Assembly: GCA_902774905.1 (NCBI GenBank)
Contig: CACYKF010000003.1
Location: 2,174-66,173 of the forward strand
Reading direction: 5' to 3'
Origin: an uncultured bacterium
GTDB taxonomy: Bacteria; Cyanobacteriota; Vampirovibrionia; Gastranaerophilales; Gastranaerophilaceae
DNA length: 64,000 nt
Below are positions 13,719 through 54,428 of this stretch, in pieces. The notes beneath the pieces are model-generated. The model did no database searches. It was not told where the DNA came from and worked only from the letters and a program-made list of their open reading frames with translations. The translations under genes were made by a program, and so were the position numbers. Position 1 is the first letter of the stretch; every line of letters starts with the position of its first letter.

Positions 13719-15125
13719 TTAACCTTGGAATGCTTTAAACGAACGCTGCATGTTTTTATCTAATGCGCTTTTTACTGATTCGTATTCTGTCTGCATAGCG
13801 TTGTGTTCAGAATCTAAAAGGCTTATTTTTCTTTGATATTTTTCATCTTTAGCATTAATTTCTGCGGTTTTTCTCTGGTATTCCGCTTCGGCTTGTGAAA
13901 TCGCTTTATTATTATCAGATTCGACAATCTCAGAAATAGAAGAATAAATTTTGCCGCTCCAAGTAATTCCTTTCAAGTTGAAAGTAAACGGATTTTCATT
14001 TGAAGCAACTGTCATATTTTCATTTGAATAAGCCGCCTGTTCGATATTTACAAGACCTTTTGACAAAGCATTACTAATCCAAACACTGCTGTTTAATAAA
14101 CTTGCATCATCCGGCAATACTTTTTGACCGTCTTTTGCTTCTCTAATACCATCACTTATATTAAATGAAGAATAATTTTTAGAACCTGTATTATCGGTTG
14201 ACTGACCATTGATTCTGTACCAAAGATTTGTGTACCACTGTGCCTTTGTAGGATCATCATACTGATATGCCTGATTTGCAGACAATCCGAGTTCATTAAG
14301 TTCATCCTGGTATTGCGCTAATGCACTCTTATATTGTTGATAACCGTCATATAACTGTTTATATGTTATTGTCACCGCATTGCCGTTTGAATCAACTAAA
14401 CCGGGAACATTTCCACCGTTTGTCGACGGATTAGTTGCTATATCTATTAATTTAGATTCTTTTGCAGAAACATAAGATACTAATTTGGTAAATTTTTCAC
14501 GGTCACTTTCCATTTGGACTAAATGGATATTAAGATCAGCCTTTGAAACATTTTCACCGGCAGATTGGCGATTAACAATTACATTATATTTAGCCAATGA
14601 GTCAAGATAATTTCCCTGTGCCGCTAATTTATCAGCCGCCCAAGAACTTTGTGCATACCCGACACCAACATACTCTACTGCATTATTCCAATACTGTGCA
14701 AAGGCTCCCAAATTTTGATGAACATCTGTCCATGTAGATTCCAAATTTGCGGTTTTAAATGATCTATTAATACCATATTTCGTTAGAAAAGATTCCAAAT
14801 TAGGGGAACTTTCGTAATTTTTTATGTCTTTATTAGTTAATAATACTTTTCCTGAATTATTTGTTAATACATACTGATTTTTTCCATCTGCATACTCATA
14901 CATTGTAGCAACGGTCAAAGGTGTTTTAACCGAATCACCGGTTGAATCAAAGGAAATAAACGAATATTGAATATCATTTAACGCTGCAATATACACCTCA
15001 CTTGCTTCCTGAGACTGAGTTGCAAGACGCATTTTTGCGTTAGAAATCTGCTGAGATTCATACTCATTAGAGGTAAGTCGAGCCGTAATTGATAATAATC
15101 TTGCCTGTGAAGATGCTAATCCCAT
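13719..15125 (-). CDS. hypothetical protein with helical N/C termini and an aromatic/Asn-rich core (flagellin-like architecture)
   Basis: 468-aa ORF with a GAAAGGA RBS and no signal peptide. The N-terminal 50 and C-terminal 60 residues are heptad-like and charged (QARLLSITARL...; AEAEYQRKTAEINAKDEKYQRK...). No family recognised. Confidence 0.7.
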   Translation of the reverse strand: MGLASSQARLLSITARLTSNEYESQQISNAKMRLATQSQEASEVYIAALNDIQYSFISFDSTGDSVKTPLTVATMYEYADGKNQYVLTNNSGKVLLTNKDIKNYESSPNLESFLTKYGINRSFKTANLESTWTDVHQNLGAFAQYWNNAVEYVGVGYAQSSWAADKLAAQGNYLDSLAKYNVIVNRQSAGENVSKADLNIHLVQMESDREKFTKLVSYVSAKESKLIDIATNPSTNGGNVPGLVDSNGNAVTITYKQLYDGYQQYKSALAQYQDELNELGLSANQAYQYDDPTKAQWYTNLWYRINGQSTDNTGSKNYSSFNISDGIREAKDGQKVLPDDASLLNSSVWISNALSKGLVNIEQAAYSNENMTVASNENPFTFNLKGITWSGKIYSSISEIVESDNNKAISQAEAEYQRKTAEINAKDEKYQRKISLLDSEHNAMQTEYESVKSALDKNMQRSFKAFQG

Positions 15126-15350
15126 GATAATTTATTCCTTTCAGAGTTACTCTTATATGTTGTGACGGAACAAAGAGAGTGTTTCTTTAATATTTTCAGA
15201 CAAATGTAAAGTTATGTAACAAAAAATATATAAATTGAATATAAAAAGTCAATATTTTTTTAAGTGATGTTTTTATATATATGTAAGAAATAAATAAAGA
15301 AAAAAGAAAAATCGTTTAATTAAGAGTTTTAAGAAGAGAGGAACAAAACT

Positions 15351-43350: not shown

Positions 43351-44331
43351 CTACATTTTTACCCCAATTGCTTCAAATAAGCCGTTTATATTAAATACAT
43401 TATATTGAAATATTAAGCCTAAAATTGTACCAACCAAAACGAGTAAACCTAAGATTATTAAAGTGTCTTTTTTATCCCCGTTTTTACGAAGCAATACTAA
43501 AATACCAAGTCCGCCTGAAGTGCAAAGACCAGCAATCAATGAGCCAAAACTGATTGTATTTTTAACAAACAACATTGTAAGCATCACAGATATAGCACAA
43601 TTTGGGATTAACCCTATAAGCGAAACCAAAAATGGCTGAAGCGGAGAATTCATAAGGCAATATTTTGCCATAATTTCTTCTGAACCTGCTCTTGATAGAA
43701 TAAACGCAAGAACAACCGATATTAAAAATATAAATACAAAAATATTTAATGTATGCTTCAACGGATGAAGCCAAAAATCTCTTTTTCTTGATGCATGGAT
43801 AAGATGATGATGGCAACAGCCTTCAATTTCATCTTCATGAACTTTTTCAATTACAGGTTCTTTAGCGTTATATGTAACAAGCCAATCAACTATATATCCG
43901 ACAACTATCGCAACAGCAATTTTTACCGCAATAATAGGCAAAATTAACGGTGCTTTCTGCGGGTAAGTCAATAGAACAGGAATTGCCTCATCTGAAGTCG
44001 CCAGATAAACCGCAACCAATGTACCTCTTGAAAGTAACCGTCTTGTATAAACCGTACTTGCAATAACAGAAAAACCGCATTGAGGTAAAGATGCGAACAA
44101 ACTGCCAAACAAAGGTCCTACCTTTTTAATCCAAAAAACAAACAAATGACGTTTTTTGGCATAGTACCGTTCAATAAATTCAATAAGAACGAAAATGATA
44201 AATAAAAACGGTATCAAACCCAAACTGTCAATCAGTGCATCTTTCAAAAAATCAGGAATAAACTCTATCGGTTCAATAAGTTCTTCCGGCATATTCCATA
44301 TAAAATTCAATACTTCGGTTATTGCGCTCAT
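43351..44331 (-). CDS. polytopic membrane protein, putative metal permease (ArsP_2/10-TM-like)
   Basis: About 10 hydrophobic helices with a central loop HEDEIEGCCHHHLIH (Cys/His metal-binding look). The family assignment is from memory only. Confidence 0.6.
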   Translation of the reverse strand: MSAITEVLNFIWNMPEELIEPIEFIPDFLKDALIDSLGLIPFLFIIFVLIEFIERYYAKKRHLFVFWIKKVGPLFGSLFASLPQCGFSVIASTVYTRRLLSRGTLVAVYLATSDEAIPVLLTYPQKAPLILPIIAVKIAVAIVVGYIVDWLVTYNAKEPVIEKVHEDEIEGCCHHHLIHASRKRDFWLHPLKHTLNIFVFIFLISVVLAFILSRAGSEEIMAKYCLMNSPLQPFLVSLIGLIPNCAISVMLTMLFVKNTISFGSLIAGLCTSGGLGILVLLRKNGDKKDTLIILGLLVLVGTILGLIFQYNVFNINGLFEAIGVKM

Positions 44332-44340
44332 AATTATTCC

Positions 44341-47295
44341 TTACAACTTAAATCCTTTTTGAGTACAAAAATCATTCAGTTTTTCTTTTTCAAAAGTTAC
44401 ACAATTCTTGATATACGAATTATTGGTTTCTTTCACCACAAATTCCATCGCCTTTTCAAACATTACAGCAGAGCCGCGCAGATATTCTATCTGATCTTGT
44501 GTTGCAATTTTACCGATATCATAATAGTATTTGCCATACAAAAGATACAATCTTGAAAGCATATCATACATTTTACATTTTTTTGCAAGTTTCAATCCTT
44601 CTTCAATATTTATTTTTGCACTTGTATAATCAGCAATATTCATATAAGCCTTACCCAGTACAAAACGCAGTTTAGCGTTAAAGAAACAGTTATCAATATT
44701 AGGATTGACAGATATCTCTAAAGCCTGAGATGCAATATCTATTGCACTCTTTGAATTTTCTGTAACAATAGTAGCGTCAGCAATCAGATACCATGCCAGC
44801 AAAGCGCCTAATGCCATTTTTTCTTTTGCAAAATATGTAACCTGTTCGTTATAAATTTCAAGTGCCTGCTGAGCCTTGTTCTCATCTTTAAAAACTTTAC
44901 CGAGTAATGTTTTCAAAATATTTTTAGTAAAACTATCACCTGTATTGTTCGCAAAAGTAACTGCTTCAAAAAGTTCTTCTCTTATGCCTTCATAATCTCT
45001 TGTCATAAATTTGTTGATAATATAGACAAGATTAAGTCTTGAAACCGAAATTTCATCCATAAAATTGTCGCGGTAATGTGCATCAACATCCTGCAGTATA
45101 CGCATTGATGCTTTTATATCACCTTTCATAGTATTTGCATAAGCCTGAACAGTTTTTGCCCTTGCAATTAGTTGTTTGTCATTTATTTTATGTTTATCAA
45201 TAATGGTAAACAAATTTTTCAGGACATCAAAAGTTCTTTCATTACCCTGCAAAGCAAGAGCAGTAGCAAGAACAAGATAAACCTTTAGCCATGTATCGAA
45301 TAACAAACCTAACGGGAACAATTTGTTCAATCTTGGTTTTGCAAGATACTGATTTAAAATCGGTAAAACATCATTATCTGCAAGAGAAATAACTTCTCCG
45401 CAATTACCGATATCTAAAAGTGCAGATAATTTGGCGCTTATAATCATTGCCCTTTCAAGTTCCTGACCATCTTTTAATTTTCTCAAAACATTATCTACAC
45501 ATTCGACATTTCCGAAATAATTACCTGTTTTTAAGCAACATTTGGCAAGATATCCCAAAAGTTCAATCTCTTTTACTTCATCATTATTTGTCCTTGCATT
45601 TGATATAGCATCCGGCAGAAATTCCAATGCTTCCTGAGGATCGTATTCAGATAGCAGTTTCCCTAATTTCTCACTTATACTGTATCGGATATTTATAGTT
45701 TCATTTTCACTAAATTCATTCAATAAGGCAAGACATTGTTTCTGCGCTATTACATATAAATTTATATCTCCGATATAAGATGCCAAACGAGTAGTCTTTG
45801 TCCAAATATCAAACGCCATTCGTGTTTCTCTTAGGTTATGAGCAATCATAGCCATAGTTGCATTGGTATTAAGGTTAAAGACACTTATTGCTTTCCCTAT
45901 TTTGACATTTATATCATCAAATTCCGAATCTCTTGTTATGTTTTTTAATATAGTTTCCCAAAGCATCAGGTTGTTAAACTCATAGCAAATACTATCAAAT
46001 TTCCTGACAAAATCCGACATTTCGAGATAACTTAAAATCTCATTAAATTCTAATTCATTAAACCCGAAAATTTCCCTTATAAGAGTAATATTTATCTTAT
46101 CTCCTAAAATGGCAGAAGCGCAAAGAACCTTATGCGCAATTTTATTTACCTTTTTAAGAGTTGAAAGTCTTTCTTTTATCAACTGAGAGAAATCATCCGG
46201 TAAAACAAACGCTTTGTCATTTATCTGACAGTCATATACATAACTGTAAGCCTGCTGAATATATGCGAGATTTCCGTTTGCCTTTTCATTTATGAGTTCT
46301 TTTTCTCTTTCGGATACATAACCTTCCGCATCTTTATTTATTTTTACATCATTTATAAGTTCTTCTTCTGTGACAGGTCTTAAGTTAATATCCTCAAAAG
46401 AATTTATGTTCTTGTTATCAAACCCGAAAAAACCGCATATTGGCTTTGGTTCATTATAAATTGCAATAAATTTTAAGTTGTTCCAATTTTTGTCTTTACG
46501 AAGCAGATTTGTAAAAAATTCCGCGCTAAATCCGTCTATAAAATCAAAATTATCAACAACAAAAATAAATTTACCACTCGATATAAATGCATCAAATATT
46601 TTGTTCAAAATTGAATAAGTGCGCTTTTTGTTAATTATGATATCTTCGTAATTTCCGTCATTAAAACTGTATATAAAATTGAACAAATCGGATACTTCAG
46701 GCGGTTGAAGGAATTTAAACTCTTTTGAGAAAAATTCATTGGCATTCTTTTTCAGTTCAGCATTGTTAATACAAAAATTCGGAAGACTAAAAAGATTTAA
46801 TAGCATATCCTGAACAACACCGCCCGGAGTTAATTGAGTAAGTGGAGTACATTTACCCAAGCATATATTTCTGTCCTCGATTTTTTTTAATGCTGAATAC
46901 AAAACAGAAGTTTTACCGCAACCTTTTTCTCCTGTTATAGAAATTACTTTTTTGTTTTTATCGGATAGAGCATTTGAAAGAATATCTATACCTTCTTTAA
47001 AAGAGCATAGTTTAGGATTAAACTGTAAAGGATTGGAAGGCTTACTTGTCCGTTTTTTCTTTTCAGGTTCACCAAATGATGCCCCACACTTTCTGCATTT
47101 TACAGCACTTGGGAAATTTACTCCGTTACATTTTGGGCAAATTTTCAACAGTTCCTGACCGCAATTTGAACATTTTAATTGTCCTGCAGGATTAACGGTC
47201 TTGCAGTTTGTGCATGATATACCCGTTCGTGTTTTACAATACGGGCATTTTAAAGCGTCATGTGCTATGTTATTTTTACAAACAGGACATTTCAT
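44341..47295 (-). CDS. triple zinc-ribbon / P-loop NTPase / TPR-like (STAND-type) protein
   Basis: Six CxxC pairs in residues 3-70, Walker A GEKGCGKT (46909-46932), Walker B-like FIFVVDNFDF, then about 650 aa of helical TPR-like repeats. Confidence 0.8.
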   Translation of the reverse strand: MKCPVCKNNIAHDALKCPYCKTRTGISCTNCKTVNPAGQLKCSNCGQELLKICPKCNGVNFPSAVKCRKCGASFGEPEKKKRTSKPSNPLQFNPKLCSFKEGIDILSNALSDKNKKVISITGEKGCGKTSVLYSALKKIEDRNICLGKCTPLTQLTPGGVVQDMLLNLFSLPNFCINNAELKKNANEFFSKEFKFLQPPEVSDLFNFIYSFNDGNYEDIIINKKRTYSILNKIFDAFISSGKFIFVVDNFDFIDGFSAEFFTNLLRKDKNWNNLKFIAIYNEPKPICGFFGFDNKNINSFEDINLRPVTEEELINDVKINKDAEGYVSEREKELINEKANGNLAYIQQAYSYVYDCQINDKAFVLPDDFSQLIKERLSTLKKVNKIAHKVLCASAILGDKINITLIREIFGFNELEFNEILSYLEMSDFVRKFDSICYEFNNLMLWETILKNITRDSEFDDINVKIGKAISVFNLNTNATMAMIAHNLRETRMAFDIWTKTTRLASYIGDINLYVIAQKQCLALLNEFSENETINIRYSISEKLGKLLSEYDPQEALEFLPDAISNARTNNDEVKEIELLGYLAKCCLKTGNYFGNVECVDNVLRKLKDGQELERAMIISAKLSALLDIGNCGEVISLADNDVLPILNQYLAKPRLNKLFPLGLLFDTWLKVYLVLATALALQGNERTFDVLKNLFTIIDKHKINDKQLIARAKTVQAYANTMKGDIKASMRILQDVDAHYRDNFMDEISVSRLNLVYIINKFMTRDYEGIREELFEAVTFANNTGDSFTKNILKTLLGKVFKDENKAQQALEIYNEQVTYFAKEKMALGALLAWYLIADATIVTENSKSAIDIASQALEISVNPNIDNCFFNAKLRFVLGKAYMNIADYTSAKINIEEGLKLAKKCKMYDMLSRLYLLYGKYYYDIGKIATQDQIEYLRGSAVMFEKAMEFVVKETNNSYIKNCVTFEKEKLNDFCTQKGFKL

Positions 47296-47300
47296 AATAC

Positions 47301-47918
47301 TTATTGTTCATCCAGAACTTTCTTTACTCTCTCAATCAAACCATAAATTCTTTTTGAAACTTCAGACTGAGAAATTCCGAGTTCTTCCGCCATTTGCCTT
47401 TGGGTAAGACATTTATCATACCTTAGGATAAAAATATCCATAAATTTCTGTTCAGGTTCTTCTTCATTTATTTGTTCAAGTGTATCGGCAATAAAATTGA
47501 CGACTTCGTTGTGTATTGCATTATCTTCAGGATTAAGAGGAATATTGATACTTTCGTAACCGGGACTGAAAGATGTATAATCATATAATGATACAGGTTC
47601 AGCCGTAGGTGCAGCAGTCAAATCCTCAACCGGCATAACAGACTCAATCGGAACCTCTGTTGTCGTCATATAACCTGATTTTGAACGACGCAATCTTCCT
47701 GAATCTTTCAATACATTAATTATAGAAGTAGTTACGACTTTGCGCAGATATGCTTCCAAAGTAGGCTGATTATCAATTGCACTTATAATAGATGCAGAAC
47801 GACGGCACGCCTCATTTAGAAAATCATCAAACAAATCCTCATTATTAGGAAATTTGCGATCATTTTTTATGATTTTTGATATTAAGTCTATCTTCTCCTG
47901 TGTAATTTCCACAAACAT
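47301..47918 (-). CDS. divergent sigma-70-family protein
   Basis: Region-4 HTH LTQRQMAEELGISQSEVSKRIYGLIERVKKVL and a region-2-like N-terminus (LEAYLRKVVTTSIINVLKDSGRLRR). A linker of about 70 aa separates them. Confidence 0.65.
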   Translation of the reverse strand: MFVEITQEKIDLISKIIKNDRKFPNNEDLFDDFLNEACRRSASIISAIDNQPTLEAYLRKVVTTSIINVLKDSGRLRRSKSGYMTTTEVPIESVMPVEDLTAAPTAEPVSLYDYTSFSPGYESINIPLNPEDNAIHNEVVNFIADTLEQINEEEPEQKFMDIFILRYDKCLTQRQMAEELGISQSEVSKRIYGLIERVKKVLDEQ

Positions 47919-47947
47919 ATCCCTTCGTCATGGAAATTATAGCATAT

Positions 47948-50900
47948 TTACAAATAAATTTTAAGTATTACGGTTGTGCTCTGGTCATTTCCCACACTAT
48001 TTGGGGCTTTCAAGACCTTTAAAGTTTGGTTAACAGATTGTAACACAATATTATCTACCTGTGCCGAACCACTTGATAGCAATATTTTTGCCTGACTGAA
48101 TGAACCGTCCTTGTTGTAAAGAACACTCAGCCTAATCTGATCGGAATAAGTATAATCAGTAGCAAGAAGTAAATCACTTGACAAAGATGCTTTCAAACTC
48201 TTACCTGCAGACTGAAAATATTGTTTAAAGTTAGTATCAAAAGAAATATAATCAGGGACTTCCCAACTCAATTTTCTCACTGACAGGAATGAAGTTGCAG
48301 GAATAGGTTTTGCTGCCTGTTGAACTGCCGCATTTTGAACATTTTGACCTGTATTAGCATTAGAACCTGCATGTTGCGGGACTGTACTTTGTGACTGTGC
48401 ATTATTATTCATAACAACATTACTGTTATCAGGATTTACAGTAGGTACATCATTACCAAGATTGTTATTCAATGCCGTATTATCAGTAACTAACGGTTCA
48501 TTGTCTTTTGGTATAGGATTCATAAATTTTGAAACGGATAAAATTATTATACTTGCAATCATGATAACAAGTGCAAGTCCGCCAACACCAAGAACTATCG
48601 GTATTATTTTCCCTTTTTCATTCACTACGGGGGCTACACTATTTAATCCGTTATCATCAGGAATAACTGTGCTGTTATTGCTATAAAGTTCTTCTAAATG
48701 TTCATTACCGCCTGAAATATCAACTTTCGAAGAGTCTTTATTGATATCAATAAAAATTTCTCCCGGATTATGATTTTTATCTGTTATCACAAATGAATTT
48801 TCTTTTACCGTATCTGAATTGAGTAAAATATCTACGGCAGAATCATCAGCAAAATAATCGATTTCCGAATTATCGTCAATCGGTGAAACCGTTTCAAAGT
48901 TAGCAAAATCTTCTACTTCCGCAAAACTTACTTCTGCGTTGTATGGTTCAGTCGTCGGCACATCCCCAAAATCAGAAAAATTAACCAATCCGTATTCATC
49001 AGAATCTGTATGTTCTTCAACCTGTTCTGTCGGCAATTCGTCAAAATCGTGAGCATCTTCACTATATTCAGAAAGAACAGAACTTTTTTCCTCAGAAACA
49101 TATTCAGGAAGTTCAAGTCCTATACCATTAGAGATATCATCAAGGTCGGCTTTAAACTCCTCATTCCCATTAGCAGTAGTATCAGCCGATGCAGATTTAC
49201 TATCATTTATAATCAAATCATCATCTCCGGACTCAATATCATCACGAACTGAAGATAAATCTTCATCTAAAATATTTTCATCGGCATCATTTTCAGAAAC
49301 ATCGGAATCAATTTCTGAATTCTCAACATCTTTCGTTTCAGAATTTGCATCATTTATTTCCAAATCAATTGATTCAAAATTAATCGGGTCATCCGGAACT
49401 TCACCGGTTGGGACTTCAGAAATTTCACCTATATCAAAAACACTGTCATCATCAGAATCAAATATATCTGCAAATCCATCAGTTTCAACATCAAGAGTTT
49501 CACCAATATCAAATAACTCTTTGTTTTCAGAATCAGAACTCTCATCAGAAATATTTTTATCTTCATCATTAATAACAGTTTCTTCATCTGTTTTTAATAT
49601 ATTTTCATCGTTTAACTCTTCACCAGATAGCATAGTATTTTCGGCATCTTCTGAAATATCAGGTTCGATAATTAAAGACTCCGTTTCGGAAATATCAGCA
49701 TCTTCTGACAACACAACATCATCATTCGTATCATCATTTTGTTCTTCAATCTCACTTACTTCAATCTCACTTTCAGAAGGTTCTTCAGTAATAAAATCCT
49801 CAAACCCGTCTAAATTCACATCTGAATCAAAATTATCCAAATTTAATTCTTCTTCATCCAAAGTCGAATCTTCTGAATCAAATGTTTGTTCAGACTCTAA
49901 AGTTTTATCTTGAATATCAGCTGTTTCTTCAGAAATTTCTTCAGTTTTATCTGTTTCATCAAATTTTTCTACAATTTCAGAAATCGATTCATCCGAAATT
50001 TGTTGTTTCGGCTCATTAGGACTATCATCCACAATATTATCCTGAATTGAATTTTCTGTAACACTTTGTTCTTCTGATATCCCAACATCTGAAGACGAAT
50101 CTTCAATATCTGCTGCAGAAGTATTATCAGATATTTCATCAAGAGTTAAATCTTCTTCTGACAAATCCAAGTTCGGAAAATCAGAGATATCTTCCCCGAA
50201 AATATCATCTTCTTCTACAATATTTTCGGGTTCAACAGAGTTATCGGCTTTTGGCACATCTTCAATAACTGCGTCATACTGATTTTCATTTTGGGATGTA
50301 GAAGTTTGGCTATCCTCATCAGAAATTTCTGCTTCTTTTTCGAAATTTTCAGATAACTCAATATCTTCTTCTAAAACATTTGTCACATCAATATTGTCTG
50401 ATATACCGTCATCAAGTAATTCTTCTGCAGCATCAGCAATTGTTTCCCCTGCCATGCCTGCAAGTTCTATTGCTTCATCGGAGACTGCATTTGCCCCAAA
50501 TACTTTTGCATCTTCAACTGCTCCTGCAACCGCAGATATAGTGTCTGCCGCCCCTGCTGCAAATTTTACCCCGTCAACAACATCATCAAGCAAACTGTCG
50601 CCGTTTAAATCCTGAGGTTTTTCATCCTTAACCTCATTTGCAGATTCGGTATCTTGCACCTCATCAACAGGAGCATCAGTCATATTTACAAAATCATCAA
50701 AATCTACAACTTCATTTTGGGCAAGACTGTTTGATTTTGATACTTGCAAAGCCGTTGCTACCCTTGAAGCAAGAGTTTCAAAATTATCGTATTCAAGCAC
50801 CGCATTTCTTAAACTGTTGCTTTTTAGAAGAAGAGAAATAAATTCATTAAATTCTTCATCAGTTACATCATGATCCGCAACAGCAACAGAAAGTTCACGA

Positions 50901-51436
50901 CCTCGCAAAATTTGTTCTTCTGTAAGATTTTTATCGGTTGTACCGCTATAAGCATTGATAAAATCTATCATTTCAAACGGGGATTTCAACTTTTCTGGTT
51001 CAAGGAAATAATATTCACCATTACAGTTATTTAAATTGATTGCAGACGGTTCAAAAAAACCGATAAAATTAATTCGCTGAAAACTTTTGTCATATTTTAG
51101 AACAGCATAAATGTCAGGAACAATACCTAAATCATAATGAGATTTTGGAATAAAAATTTCATATTCATTGAAAATTACTCTGACATCTATATGGATATTT
51201 TTTAATATAACATCTGCAATATCAACTTTTTCAACAATTCTTTTTATGGAATGAATACTCGCAATACCATCTGTATCTACACCTAACTTTTCAAGATATG
51301 AAATAATAGCCTCTGACCCGATTACATTAAAAAATATTCTGTTTTGAACAGAAGTATCAATAAAATTAGATGCCATAAATTGCGCTTCTGCCAAATTATC
51401 CTTTGTAATTTCAACTAATTCTGTTTCTAAATTCAT
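47948..51436 (-). CDS. 1162-aa acidic single-pass membrane protein with TonB_C-like C-terminus
   Basis: AGGGGAG RBS. Globular N-domain (about 240 aa), a D/E/S/N-rich region (about 48737-50719), TM helix IIPIVLGVGGLALVIMIASIIILSV (48533-48607), an N/Q linker and a C-terminal ...DGSFSQAKILLSSGSAQVDNIVLQSV... Confidence 0.8.
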   Translation of the reverse strand: MNLETELVEITKDNLAEAQFMASNFIDTSVQNRIFFNVIGSEAIISYLEKLGVDTDGIASIHSIKRIVEKVDIADVILKNIHIDVRVIFNEYEIFIPKSHYDLGIVPDIYAVLKYDKSFQRINFIGFFEPSAINLNNCNGEYYFLEPEKLKSPFEMIDFINAYSGTTDKNLTEEQILRGRELSVAVADHDVTDEEFNEFISLLLKSNSLRNAVLEYDNFETLASRVATALQVSKSNSLAQNEVVDFDDFVNMTDAPVDEVQDTESANEVKDEKPQDLNGDSLLDDVVDGVKFAAGAADTISAVAGAVEDAKVFGANAVSDEAIELAGMAGETIADAAEELLDDGISDNIDVTNVLEEDIELSENFEKEAEISDEDSQTSTSQNENQYDAVIEDVPKADNSVEPENIVEEDDIFGEDISDFPNLDLSEEDLTLDEISDNTSAADIEDSSSDVGISEEQSVTENSIQDNIVDDSPNEPKQQISDESISEIVEKFDETDKTEEISEETADIQDKTLESEQTFDSEDSTLDEEELNLDNFDSDVNLDGFEDFITEEPSESEIEVSEIEEQNDDTNDDVVLSEDADISETESLIIEPDISEDAENTMLSGEELNDENILKTDEETVINDEDKNISDESSDSENKELFDIGETLDVETDGFADIFDSDDDSVFDIGEISEVPTGEVPDDPINFESIDLEINDANSETKDVENSEIDSDVSENDADENILDEDLSSVRDDIESGDDDLIINDSKSASADTTANGNEEFKADLDDISNGIGLELPEYVSEEKSSVLSEYSEDAHDFDELPTEQVEEHTDSDEYGLVNFSDFGDVPTTEPYNAEVSFAEVEDFANFETVSPIDDNSEIDYFADDSAVDILLNSDTVKENSFVITDKNHNPGEIFIDINKDSSKVDISGGNEHLEELYSNNSTVIPDDNGLNSVAPVVNEKGKIIPIVLGVGGLALVIMIASIIILSVSKFMNPIPKDNEPLVTDNTALNNNLGNDVPTVNPDNSNVVMNNNAQSQSTVPQHAGSNANTGQNVQNAAVQQAAKPIPATSFLSVRKLSWEVPDYISFDTNFKQYFQSAGKSLKASLSSDLLLATDYTYSDQIRLSVLYNKDGSFSQAKILLSSGSAQVDNIVLQSVNQTLKVLKAPNSVGNDQSTTVILKIYL

Positions 51437-51604
51437 GCTTAATCTCCCCTTCTAAATATATAGATGACACCTAAAAAAAAATTATTCCAAAAATATTGTA
51501 AATTTTTGTAAAGATATTGGAAAAATGCTCATTATTTTGTCAAAATCATAAAGTCAGTTGTTTTTATATGCTTGTGAAGTAAATGTGTTCAAGGAGGTTT
51601 TCTC

Positions 51605-52027
51605 ATGTCTTTAAGTGTTAATCCTGTTTCGAGTGTAAGTTTTCGTGCTCAAGAAGTCGTTCAACCAAGTGCAGAAGATATTTTAAGCCGTCCGGGGGCT
51701 TTTGCAAAACCGGAAACTACATACTCACAACCTGCAAAGAAAAAACATACTTTTCTTAAATATGTAGCAGGAGCATTGATTACAGCAGGGGTATTAGCAG
51801 GAGCATTATACGGTCTTAAAAGAGGATTCCCTAATGTATTTAAAGTCACTGAAGACATAAGCAAACTTGAAGGTGGGGTTCTCAAAAAAACACAGGCTTA
51901 CATTACAACAGGTGTGGCAAAAGGTGCCGAATATGTCGAAAAATGCGCTGATAAAGTTGTTAATTATTCCACAAAAGGATGGGATAAATTAAAAGGATTA
52001 TTTAAAAGTACAAAACCCGATGCTTAA
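51605..52027 (+). CDS. hypothetical small membrane-anchored protein
   Basis: 140 aa with a strong AAGGAGG RBS and one TM helix (YVAGALITAGVLAGALYGL). Its terminator is at 52045-52073. Confidence 0.6.
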   Translation: MSLSVNPVSSVSFRAQEVVQPSAEDILSRPGAFAKPETTYSQPAKKKHTFLKYVAGALITAGVLAGALYGLKRGFPNVFKVTEDISKLEGGVLKKTQAYITTGVAKGAEYVEKCADKVVNYSTKGWDKLKGLFKSTKPDA

Positions 52028-52044
52028 TCATAACTTAATAAATA

Positions 52045-52073
52045 AAAAGACTCTTTAAAAAGAGTCTTTTTTA
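52045..52073 (+). terminator. intrinsic terminator
   Basis: aaagactctt-taaa-aagagtcttt hairpin followed by a T-run. Confidence 0.75.
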
Positions 52074-52156: not shown

Positions 52157-53902
52157 ATGAGTTATACACTACCTTATACTTTTGTCCCCGGAACAAAAGC
52201 AAGAGCGCAGGAAGTAAATGCCGATTTTTCAGCAATAATTGACGCACTTGATGATACAGATGTAAGAAAAGTTAATACCGATTTTTCAAATATATCCTCA
52301 GAAGCAATAGACATTATAAAAAATAATTCTTCTATTCGTAACCTTGGGGAACTTATTTTTTCACCTATTCCTTTAACAGATTCAAGTCTTCACCTGCTTG
52401 ATGGCAGCACATTGCAAAGAACGGGAATATATGGAGATTTTGTAAGTTATATTGCAAAAAAATATAATACAGATGTTTCTTATAATTCAGATATGTTCTC
52501 TACAACCGGAACCGTATCCGTAACAGGCGACGGTATAGCAAGCGGTTTTAGTACAAGTAACTATGTAAAAGCCGAAGGGGCATATCCTATTGGAGAAGAT
52601 TTTGAATTATACCTGCCTTTTACACCTTCCCAAAAAACAAGCAACTCCGAAATATACAGAGCAACCGAATCAGGTTCATTCAGATTCGTATGTAACCAAA
52701 TAACCAACGGCTCTGTAATGTTTAATATGACAGACGGAATAAATGGCTTAGGATCACCTGTTTTAGTACAGAATACCAACCTTGTGGTTGGAGATAGTTA
52801 TATTTTAGTCATAAAGCAAAAAAATCATACATGTACATATGGATATATCCATAACGGACTGTACACACAAACAGGGACAAAATCAAATTTTCCAATAAAC
52901 ATTTCAACCATTACGAACTTTATGATTGGACGAGGAGCAAATACAGGTTTTGACGGTTCAATAGACTTAAAACAGTTTAAACTTGTTATAAATGGAGAAG
53001 AAATCATAAACGGAAGTAAAATTAATAATTACTTTACTGATGAAGAATCATGGCAGCAAAGTGTAAACAAATACGGAGAATGTGCAAAGTTTGTTTATAA
53101 TCCTACCGAAAACACTGTCAGACTTCCAAAGATAAAAGGATTAATTGAATACACAACATCTACATCGGAACTTGGGGAATTAACAGAAGCAGGGCTGCCT
53201 AATATCACCGGGAAACAAAATGAAGTCAGACGCGACGGAAATCCTAATAATGAGGGGGCGTTACATTCATCTCATACAAGGACAGGGGTATCGAGCGGAA
53301 CCGGAGGAGGTCAGGCTGCGGATATTTACTTTGATGCAAGTTGGTCAAACCCGATTTACGGCAAATCTTCAACCGTACAGCCTCAAACCGTAAAATATCT
53401 CGTTTATATTGTAGTAGCAAGTACCCCGAAAACTAATATTCAAGTCGATATTGACCAAATAGCCACAGACATAAATGGAAAACTTGACAAAGATTTGAGT
53501 AACATAGAAGTATCTAATATTCGTAATTTTGACGGTCAATGGACATATAAATACATGCTAATCAACAACTCTAATGTAAGCGCCGGCAAATACGATGTAG
53601 ACCTATCATCGTATCTTCCAGATGATCAATACAAGTATGAGGTGATTGTAAATATCTATGCTACACAAAATACAAGTACAACAAACGCCTTTGTTATTTT
53701 ATCTTCAAGTATTATAACAGAACCGGGGACATCCGGTACATTCTCCTGCCTTGCTGTAAATTCAAACAGCTCGGTATCCGGGACACAAACAATATTCCCT
53801 GTTGGTAATAACAAAATTTTATCTTATAGGCTTGGCGGACAAAATTTTGATGCAATGTTTATACGCTTATATGGTTACAGACGAATAGGTACAAATAATT
53901 AG
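52157..53902 (+). CDS. phage tail-collar / LamG-like fibre protein
   Basis: LGELIFSPIPL...LLDGSTL...YGDF (collar-like). A middle domain ends with GSIDLKQFKLVINGEEI (LamG/ConA-like ending). Then GLPNITGK...FDASWSNPIYGKSSTVQPQTV (tail-fibre-like). Confidence 0.65.
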   Translation: MSYTLPYTFVPGTKARAQEVNADFSAIIDALDDTDVRKVNTDFSNISSEAIDIIKNNSSIRNLGELIFSPIPLTDSSLHLLDGSTLQRTGIYGDFVSYIAKKYNTDVSYNSDMFSTTGTVSVTGDGIASGFSTSNYVKAEGAYPIGEDFELYLPFTPSQKTSNSEIYRATESGSFRFVCNQITNGSVMFNMTDGINGLGSPVLVQNTNLVVGDSYILVIKQKNHTCTYGYIHNGLYTQTGTKSNFPINISTITNFMIGRGANTGFDGSIDLKQFKLVINGEEIINGSKINNYFTDEESWQQSVNKYGECAKFVYNPTENTVRLPKIKGLIEYTTSTSELGELTEAGLPNITGKQNEVRRDGNPNNEGALHSSHTRTGVSSGTGGGQAADIYFDASWSNPIYGKSSTVQPQTVKYLVYIVVASTPKTNIQVDIDQIATDINGKLDKDLSNIEVSNIRNFDGQWTYKYMLINNSNVSAGKYDVDLSSYLPDDQYKYEVIVNIYATQNTSTTNAFVILSSSIITEPGTSGTFSCLAVNSNSSVSGTQTIFPVGNNKILSYRLGGQNFDAMFIRLYGYRRIGTNN

Positions 53903-53915
53903 GAGGTAGTTTTAT

Positions 53916-54428
53916 ATGTATTATGCAATAATAAAAAATAATGAAATCATTGGCACAAGTGAATGTCCATACGCAAATAAAGATATCGAAAATATAGAAA
54001 TAAGCGAAGAAATTTTTAACGAAATAGAAAAATATACATATTTTGAAGGCGAAATTATTCCGGACACTCATTATGAAGAAAAACAAGCGCAAAAGGAACA
54101 AGAGCGTATTAATAGACTTTCAATGACCCGTTCGGATTTCTTCGACGGCACAATAAAAGCATTTGGGGTTGACGGCAATGATCTGCTGATTATTATAGAA
54201 AACATACTGAATACTCTTAAAATTGACACAATTGAGAAAAAAATTGCGATAAATAACTACCGCAATGCGCTGAATTTTTACAGAAATCATACACTTTTCA
54301 CATTGTTAAGCAATATTCCAATAAAGATATCCGAGGATTTGACAATAACTATTACGGATAAACAATGGGATAAATTCTTTGACGAAACAGATAAGAAAAA
54401 TCCTGAAGCCTACAAAGAACTTTTATAG
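53916..54428 (+). CDS. hypothetical protein, possible fibre assembly/chaperone partner
   Basis: 170 aa with an AGGAGG RBS 13 nt after the fibre-gene stop. The call is based on position only. Confidence 0.45.
   Translation: MYYAIIKNNEIIGTSECPYANKDIENIEISEEIFNEIEKYTYFEGEIIPDTHYEEKQAQKEQERINRLSMTRSDFFDGTIKAFGVDGNDLLIIIENILNTLKIDTIEKKIAINNYRNALNFYRNHTLFTLLSNIPIKISEDLTITITDKQWDKFFDETDKKNPEAYKELL

Follow-up and report, generated by a model that had tools for sequence, protein, structure and literature searches.

In the CalpL-CalpT-CalpS and Craspase-Csx30-RpoE systems, which are accessory to type III CRISPR, a sensor acts on a sigma-binding protein and frees an extracytoplasmic function (ECF)-like sigma factor. 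The three genes described here (A, B, and C) lie on the minus strand of a 64,000-nucleotide stretch of DNA (the window; contig CACYKF010000003.1, positions 2,174 to 66,173, of assembly GCA_902774905.1) from an uncultured member of the Gastranaerophilaceae, and they are like those systems in three-part logic only, with no protease, CRISPR context, or cyclic-nucleotide sensor. A codes for a predicted acidic membrane protein, B for a sigma factor, and C for a STAND protein, and together with a divergent fourth gene, Z, they form a conserved unit in gut and rumen Gastranaerophilales (Melainabacteria) that is found on each of the contigs examined that extend far enough. We tentatively read this module as an uncharacterized envelope-to-transcription signaling device that controls a dedicated ECF-like sigma factor and is gated by A and C.

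In cyanobacteria, ECF sigma and DUF1822 genes adjoin genes for EACC2-caspases, and the variable C termini encoded by the caspase genes include STAND NTPases, according to one paper (Kaur, Iyer, Burroughs, and Aravind 2021; PMC8195603), the source of the cyanobacterial side of this comparison. The present locus likewise places an ECF-type sigma gene next to one for DUF1822, together with a third gene for a large protein of sensor type. It differs in that no EACC2 or caspase domain is present and the STAND protein is free-standing and bears zinc ribbons, in the fusion of DUF1822 to an acidic region of ~700 amino acids (aa), a transmembrane (TM) helix, and a TonB_C-like domain, and in being lineage-wide rather than patchy. 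In that paper, DUF1822 is called a TPR protein, whereas the part of DUF1822 that is matched here models as a nuclease-like alpha/beta core. The initial annotation knew of no characterized system with this composition; the combination itself is indeed uncharacterized, although PMC8195603 notes ECF sigma and DUF1822 genes beside caspase genes, some with STAND C termini. A tblastn search of a plasmid collection with a DUF1822-positive homolog found nothing, and the main text of the ECF reclassification paper mentions no STAND-controlled mode of sigma regulation and none of CHAT, AAA, or Melainabacteria.

The sigma/anti-sigma pairs RpoE-RseA, SigW-RsiW, and FecI-FecR share with this locus a two-domain sigma factor, a bitopic membrane protein (cytoplasmic N terminus and extracytoplasmic C terminus, as predicted for A), and an ECF-like GGAAT...GTC promoter in front of the unit. 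Unlike these pairs, A has no detectable class I anti-sigma domain, its predicted cytoplasmic part exceeds 900 residues, its gene lies upstream of the sigma gene with a promoter between the two, and there is a third, STAND partner. That partner, C, is organized as in the MalT/LAL activators and PH0952 (8bob and 6mfv), in which a TPR/SUPR-like sensor arm comes after a P-loop STAND module, but has three N-terminal zinc ribbons, a Walker B motif reading D-N, and no LuxR-type helix-turn-helix, so that its targeting to DNA would depend on the sigma factor acting in trans. Protein A also recalls TonB and TolA in its TM helix, its low-complexity spacer, and the predicted periplasmic domain of TonB_C fold at its C terminus, but its TM helix lies ~940 residues from the N terminus and its spacer is Asn-rich rather than Pro-rich.

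The window has a G+C content of 30 to 38%, and its gene C is 98 to 99% identical to those of the rumen metagenome-assembled genomes (MAGs) RGIG4922 and RUG13741; other related records are labeled Gastranaerophilales, Melainabacteria, or 'Cyanobacteria bacterium UBA', and the public records name A, C, and Z 'hypothetical protein'. The source is therefore a nonphotosynthetic relative of the cyanobacteria from the gut or rumen. The three minus-strand open reading frames (ORFs) reported in the initial annotation, with gaps of 29 nucleotides (nt) between A and B and 5 nt between B and C, were recovered at the same positions. The genes and their domains are as follows.

47948..51436, minus strand: gene A, an ORF of 1162 aa
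50732..51436, minus strand: DUF1822 N-domain of A (aa 1-235), an alpha/beta core plus a helical bundle, from Pfam (PF08852) and an AlphaFold2 (AF2) model
48608..50731, minus strand: polyacidic, predicted disordered region of A (aa 236-943), from composition
48533..48607, minus strand: single predicted TM helix of A (aa 944-968), from hydropathy
47951..48532, minus strand: Asn-rich linker (aa 969-1037) and TonB_C-like domain (aa 1038-1162) of A, from Pfam, predicted to be periplasmic
47301..47918, minus strand: gene B, an ORF of 205 aa
47301..47918, minus strand: layout of B, with sigma2 (aa ~20-90), a variable linker, and sigma4 (aa ~129-203), from TIGR02937 and Sigma70_r4
44341..47295, minus strand: gene C, an ORF of 984 aa
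47080..47295, minus strand: three C4 zinc ribbons of C (aa 1-72), from DZR (E 1.5e-8) and 12 invariant Cys
45931..47001, minus strand: STAND module of C with nucleotide-binding, helical, and winged-helix parts (aa 99-455), from AAA_16, AAA_22, and the fold
44344..45930, minus strand: TPR-like superhelix of C (aa 456-984), from the model and TPR fold matches
51605..52027, plus strand: gene Z, a small single-pass membrane protein of 140 aa, divergent from A

A scan of one genome per species with protein C gave 61 loci, in which the parts of the module were placed by tblastn. C was placed at all 61 loci and B at 60. Of protein A, the C-terminal domain was recovered at 59 loci and the N-domain at 53, and where B or part of A is missing, the contig edge is the place of the loss. 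The order and strand of A-B-C are constant throughout, and just 6 loci allow the acidic middle of A to be aligned. A second scan, with an alignment of the A N-domain against metagenome contigs, added 80 loci from gut and rumen contigs alone, with nothing returned from beyond the gut clade. Wherever these contigs have room, B (58/58) and C (52/52) are present, and the trio is still syntenic in a divergent clade in which C is just 42 to 49% identical. The synteny of the trio in relatives, to which the initial annotation had looked for confirmation, is thus borne out, and vertical, lineage-wide inheritance is the best reading of the distribution. PADLOC models have no match to A, C, or Z, a PHROG search leaves all three without a family, and the viral contigs of IMG/VR hold no relatives of the module; neither the PADLOC match nor the patchy, mobile distribution of known antiphage systems (Avs and other STAND systems) is found. 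With no PADLOC match, no IMG/VR relatives, no hypervariable sensor, and presence wherever a contig reaches, the module is unlike a mobile defense island. The cluster also occurs in three records (L025, L035, and L043) labeled Methanomethylophilaceae archaeon or Muribaculaceae, which are probably binning or labeling errors in public MAGs.

The 205-aa product of B had been assigned to the sigma-70 family, and profile searches place it there. TIGR02937 matches aa 22-201 of the window protein with 67.5 bits (cutoff, 42.9) and matches 32/32 orthologs; Sigma70_r4 and r4_2 likewise match all 32 orthologs (best E 1.8e-9), with the window protein at 23.8 bits against a cutoff of 24.1, and a B profile finds SigF (8jzt) in the PDB at E 8e-5. 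The N-terminal 100 aa alone align in register to TIGR02937 positions ~21-86 (E 8e-5 to 4.6e-6). Pfam Sigma70_r2 has no match in the window protein and is absent among the 25 families listed for the orthologs, so the sigma2 domain is divergent. The linker is poorly conserved (majority fraction 0.36, versus 0.80 and 0.72 for the domains), most orthologs are 186 to 210 aa, and this short two-domain form with a nonconserved linker fits the ECF architecture, although no subgroup model, ECF or otherwise, scores above its cutoff; 19/32 orthologs weakly match a CRISPR III-E sigma model (best E 4.7e-6). From its sequence, B is a genuine, divergent two-domain (sigma2 plus sigma4) ECF-like factor of the sigma-70 family. 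The region 4 helix-turn-helix and divergent region 2 proposed earlier both hold, but the linker between them is ~40 to 50 residues and not 70. Near-identical members of the 90% cluster of B are annotated as 203 aa by NCBI, the frame opens with GTG GAA in most relatives, and Shine-Dalgarno spacing favors GTG; B therefore probably starts at the GTG at 47912 (203 aa) rather than at the ATG at 47918.

Protein A has the domain order originally described (a globular N-domain, an acidic stretch, one TM helix, a linker, and a TonB_C-like end), which Pfam, hydropathy, and the structural model all support and which is common to 53 species, with whole-protein lengths of 848 to 1381 aa. The N-domain can now be specified as probably DUF1822 (PF08852). 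Window A scores 17.9 bits against a gathering score of 25, four homologs score 25.0, 33.3, 36.1, and 40.6 bits, and PF08852 is among the precomputed Pfam hits of 29/34 A homologs; the match spans just the first ~160 to 270 of the 370 model positions. An AF2 model of aa 1-260 is confident (pLDDT 85.7, pTM 0.80) and places a helical bundle after an alpha/beta core. Against BFVD, a collection of predicted viral structures, it has six matches at E<=1e-3 (probability 1.0), namely phage proteins of ~160 to 200 aa and one 325-aa pandoravirus protein, with E values of 2e-5 to 5e-4 and TMt of 0.5 to 0.6; one of the six is named 'Restriction endonuclease', as is a further match at E 2.5e-3. Nothing in the PDB is significant, with HincII and the influenza PA endonuclease below threshold. 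On the BFVD matches, the DUF1822 domain models as a probable restriction-endonuclease-like fold. Ten residues are invariant (E69, D72, D75, H82, D84, R86, K98, H100, P107, and D108), all within aa 69-108 across the first strands of the core. For the PD-(D/E)xK signature, P107-D108 is invariant, and the E-x-K found after it in many relatives, which we place at consensus E129-P130-K131, reads EPS in window A and varies in relatives. The initial annotation saw no enzymatic or effector domain anywhere in the module; this is doubtful for A, given the nuclease-like fold of its N-domain. A profile of the N-domain finds 767 proteins among 1.84 billion representatives, the 150 best listed being mostly 700 to 1366 aa, and as judged by these matches the family is a narrow, lineage-restricted subfamily. 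The class I anti-sigma families RskA, zf-HC2, and RseA_N match neither A nor Z even at E<=10, though an anti-sigma function may still be present.

The middle region of A keeps its composition and not its sequence, with 26 to 34% D/E and 2 to 6% K/R across the 53 species; residues 236-935 of window A have 228 D/E and 22 K/R, and the net charge of the whole protein is -222. The TM helix is the top hydropathy window in 53/53 orthologs, ~175 to 220 residues from the C terminus. Its flanks are charged +2.1 on the N side and -1.3 on the C side, and neither a second TM helix or hydrophobic segment nor a signal-peptide-like N terminus is seen, together suggesting an N-in/C-out orientation. A is accordingly predicted to be bitopic, with DUF1822 and a polyanionic tether of ~700 residues in the cytoplasm and the TonB_C-like domain in the periplasm. 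The linker has 17 Asn and 6 Pro in 69 residues, and the last ~125 residues have a mean column identity of 70%. TonB_C matches this C terminus in 26/26 orthologs (best E 1.5e-6) and TonB_2 in 25/26 (best E 1.1e-7), with window A alone at 18.2 bits, under the Pfam cutoff of 24.6; a sequence profile of the C terminus against the PDB finds no TonB, just a chance match to the ATP synthase epsilon subunit (E 0.093). ExbB and ExbD are absent among the genes flanking A-B-C, of which two per side were checked. A is ruled out as a TonB ortholog by the position of its TM helix (944-968 of 1162), the spacer that is Asn-rich and not Pro-rich, and the lack of ExbB and ExbD among the flanking genes checked.

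A Gly/Ala-rich island in the acidic region of A (aa 288-335; nt 50432-50575) recurs across species, its best 30-residue window having a median of 17 G+A against a background of 9.5%. It is followed in several species by a short (D/E)AI(K/E)LAG motif, and within the disordered chain it may represent a conserved segment for interactions or for membrane binding.

Protein C had been described as having three zinc ribbons, a P-loop NTPase, and TPR-like helices, and all three parts are upheld by invariant Cys and Walker motifs and by the closest solved structure. Twelve invariant Cys form CxxC pairs within aa 3-70, a region with a mean majority fraction of 0.82. Among the 31 orthologs, the Walker A motif (G122xxGxGK128) is invariant, and the Walker B motif is hhhhD248-N249 (D-N at 46549-46554), its second acidic position being an invariant Asn that makes it D-N and not D-D/E. 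Pfam gives AAA_16, AAA_22, and weak NB-ARC and nSTAND5 matches; AAA_16 is below its cutoff in the window protein (25.1 versus 32.6 bits) and is present in many orthologs. An AlphaFold model built from the 31 orthologs (pLDDT 82.9) has an all-helical C-terminal arm, and its best match among solved structures is the STAND plus TPR protein PH0952 (6mfv; E 7.9e-11). MalT (8bob) is matched at E 6e-7 with a TMt of 0.58, and the remaining fold matches are TPR scaffolds. C has no match to helix-turn-helix, protease, or other effector families, the TPR-like helices running to the C terminus in the model, and the LuxR/GerE-type C-terminal DNA-binding domain of the MalT/LAL activators is absent. C is thus a STAND ATPase of the MalT-like type that carries three zinc ribbons at its N terminus and lacks a DNA-binding domain, and the TPR arm is presumed to sense a ligand or bind a partner. 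Conservation in this arm (0.84 and 0.71) is on a par with that of the nucleotide-binding domain (0.74), which argues for housekeeping rather than arms-race behavior.

Gene Z, which the initial annotation did not remark on, is the fourth gene of the unit. It is the first divergent ORF, 162 to 177 nt upstream of A, in 51/53 genome loci, lies 163 to 244 nt upstream of A in 18/18 divergent metagenome loci inspected, and is also present in the independent gene calls of three contigs (L142-L144). The protein has no Pfam, PADLOC, or PHROG family but has conserved motifs at both ends, VSxVxFRG...LxRPGxF at the N terminus and GHYxAKxGExIxKYTYxP at the C terminus, and a KKKS stretch precedes its TM helix. 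The charge is higher ahead of the helix (+2.8) than behind it (+0.85), which suggests that Z is oriented N-in.

Strong constraint is seen on the DNA in front of A and between A and B, where four candidate control elements lie.

51515..51543, minus strand: putative sigma-70-like promoter P1, TTGACA-N17-CCAATA, as read from the sequence
51497..51512, minus strand: direct repeat (G/T)TTACA-AAAA-TTTACA, from conservation
51463..51489, minus strand: ECF-type promoter-like block TGGAATA-N14-GTCATC (-35 GGAAT and -10 GTC), ~27 nt before the start codon of A
47936..47964, minus strand: putative promoter P_BC, TTAAAA-N17-TG-n-TATAAT (extended -10), from a consensus scan, running from the end of A into the A-B gap

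Between Z and A, 40/117 columns are at least 90% identical in 54 sequences; for comparison, the four-fold sites of invariant B codons have a majority fraction of ~0.47, a value from five sites only. The core reads tGTTACAAAAaTTTACA-N7-TTTGGAATAtTTT-N10-GTGTCATCTATAT with constant spacing. P1 is TTGAC(a/t)-N17-aAATAT in relatives, often with TG before it, and its TTTTGAC and tttg.aaa columns are conserved in the 54 sequences. The direct repeat, as GTTACA-N4/5-TTTACA with at most one mismatch, is present in 127/130 sources that include the upstream region and could be a UP-like element or a site for an activator. Elsewhere in the window it is matched no more often than by chance. One copy with two mismatches, GTTACATAACTTTACA, lies at 15205-15220 on the minus strand, ~80 nt upstream of the gene at 13719..15125, and such matches number 5 in the window against 4.8 expected. 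The TGGAATA-N14-GTCATC block is found with at most one mismatch in 116/130 sources and at most two in 128/130, its spacer fixed in length and free in sequence, and the window holds a single exact match. Conserved hexamers around such a spacer are a promoter signature, and GGAAT...GTC resembles the ECF promoter consensus. RNAalifold predicts zero pairs on the conserved leader, so a riboswitch or attenuator in the Z-A leader was rejected and the constraint acts on DNA.

The A-B gap carries TGnTA[TC]A[AC]T in 54/54 sequences and the exact TGnTATAAT in 47/54, and this conserved extended -10 promoter indicates that B and C have their own housekeeping-type promoter. The co-transcription of the trio proposed earlier is therefore too simple as a single operon, although no minus-strand terminator-like site lies in the gaps between A, B, C, and the next gene (D), the only such site in the span being a weak 5-pair stem inside the A coding sequence (49691-49679).

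Under our favored reading, that of an envelope-to-transcription device, B and C would be made from the housekeeping-type extended -10 promoter in the A-B gap, and the DUF1822 domain of A would hold or modulate B at the membrane in an anti-sigma-like role, with Z as a possible co-factor of A in holding B. The TonB_C-like domain would sense or report the state of the envelope or anchor A to an envelope component. C would bind ATP and, through its TPR arm, a conserved cytoplasmic (endogenous) ligand or partner and then oligomerize, and the clustered zinc ribbons would engage A, B, or RNA polymerase and switch B on or off. Active B would transcribe from the GGAAT-N15-GTC promoter before A, giving feedback, and from an unmapped regulon. 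A sigma/anti-sigma pair coupled to a STAND switch is plausible as wiring. The strongest independent case for A and B acting together is the recurrence of the sigma-DUF1822 pairing in another lineage and context.

Several observations weigh against this reading. Pfam finds DUF1822 alone in A and no anti-sigma domain, the fold of the A N-domain matches RsiW and MucA only nonsignificantly (E 2.6 to 5.3), and DUF1822, with its nuclease-like fold and its invariant acidic and His residues, could have an enzymatic role for which this reading has no place. The gene order, with the putative anti-sigma gene first and the sigma gene having its own promoter, is unlike the usual sigma-then-anti-sigma operon. 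The 15-nt spacing from GGAAT to GTC is 1 to 3 nt shorter than in ECF promoters, an alternative parse of the block as GTTACA-N18-GGAATA is possible, and 2.26 Mb of DNA (the window and cluster flanks) holds scattered single-mismatch matches and no further conserved site, so no regulon is visible. The D-N form of Walker B suggests slow or absent ATP hydrolysis in C, which may be a nucleotide-binding switch rather than an enzyme.

The main rival, which we rank as unlikely, makes B and C the regulators and A and Z the targets. In this arrangement C is a 'split MalT' that lacks its own helix-turn-helix and licenses B, and B drives Z and A, an envelope-spanning acidic scaffold in the style of TonB/TolA or HubP that does not itself regulate B. 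The separate conserved promoter of B-C, the 5-nt B-C gap in the window, and the special promoter-like block in front of A alone all fit, as do PH0952 and MalT as the nearest solved folds of C and the lack of a recognizable anti-sigma domain in A. However, transcripts from the A promoter may run into B-C, there being no minus-strand terminator-like site in the A-B gap, and PMC8195603 ties DUF1822 to ECF sigma genes in unrelated cyanobacterial contexts, without mention of a TM/TonB_C fusion, which argues for a functional link between DUF1822 and the sigma factor.

A further candidate is a conflict or defense system like those of Kaur et al., in which a STAND (NLR-like) sensor would detect an invader, the restriction-endonuclease-like DUF1822 domain of A would be the effector, and the sigma factor would mount a transcriptional response; the one precedent found in the literature searched for sigma plus DUF1822 comes from a conflict-system paper. 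The DUF1822 model does match phage proteins, two of them named 'restriction endonuclease', and the N-domain has invariant E, D, H, and K residues. STAND plus TPR is also the architecture of Avs/NLR-like sensors. Yet no genome locus examined lacks the module, its position is fixed and its neighbors are conserved, the sensor arm of C is not hypervariable, there are no PADLOC matches or viral-contig relatives, and the canonical ExK of a PD-(D/E)xK site reads EPS in window A and varies in relatives, leaving defense improbable. We give about the same low weight to A as a ToxR-style membrane-tethered DNA-binding factor, whose DUF1822 domain would recognize GTTACA-N4-TTTACA or GTGTCATC in its own control region and whose acidic chain would be a leash to the nucleoid. 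The nuclease-like fold of the model, the N-in topology that would place DUF1822 in the cytoplasm, and the extreme conservation and fixed spacing of the DNA elements, for which no RNA structure is predicted, are consistent with such a role, but a polyanionic tether would repel DNA, and the conserved elements could equally well be promoter hexamers. That A, C, and Z are annotated just as hypothetical proteins leaves room for unrelated neighbors kept together by chance or weak operon inertia, which is very improbable because order, strand, gap sizes, and regulatory DNA are kept across more than 130 contigs, with C ranging from 42 to 99% identity, while the flanks rearrange.

Sigma factor signaling modules as a kind are already known, and the link between sigma and DUF1822 genes has been noted once before. 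New here are the free-standing, zinc-ribbon MalT-like STAND ATPase, the fusion of DUF1822 to a polyacid, TM helix, and TonB_C-like domain, the fourth small membrane protein, and the near-invariant dual-promoter region. A broader interpretation, which we hold doubtful, is that DUF1822 is a new class of sigma factor partner built on a restriction-endonuclease fold, that a STAND ATPase resembling MalT works on a sigma factor in trans in place of having a DNA-binding domain of its own, that together they make a two-input (envelope plus cytoplasm), ATP-gated switch, and that the polyanionic chain of ~700 residues is a leash or a mimic of DNA or RNA polymerase. If true, the favored envelope-to-transcription reading would for the first time put DUF1822, which is scarcely mentioned in the literature searched, into a functional context and assign it a fold. 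As a regulatory circuit, the module may be a defining mark of its lineage, an uncultured sister group of the cyanobacteria that is associated with humans and animals, and its near-invariant promoter block offers a handle for finding the regulon without culturing the organism.

The genes downstream of C differ between lineages. In the window, a permease of the ArsP_2/arsenic-efflux family (43351-44331, minus strand; NF037962, E 1.4e-70) begins 9 nt past C, and an ArsP-like gene is beside C in 13/61 species loci, which makes it a recent local arrangement outside the module. On the other side, Z is followed by a hairpin:

52044..52071, both strands: bidirectional terminator-like hairpin past Z, with a 12-bp stem and a T-run on both strands

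Beyond it, a 581-aa protein (52157-53902, plus strand) matches the PHROG tail fiber family phrog_6921 (E 1.3e-5), and its N terminus and a '...STVQPQTVKYLVYIV' segment are tail-fiber- or tail-collar-like by inspection. This fiber-like gene is detectable beside Z in 43/61 loci, and its product is 34 to 44% identical to a 426-aa protein in contig L142; the chromosomal fiber-like gene could be one of the targets of the module. In both the window (53916-54428, plus strand) and L142, it is followed by a small ORF.

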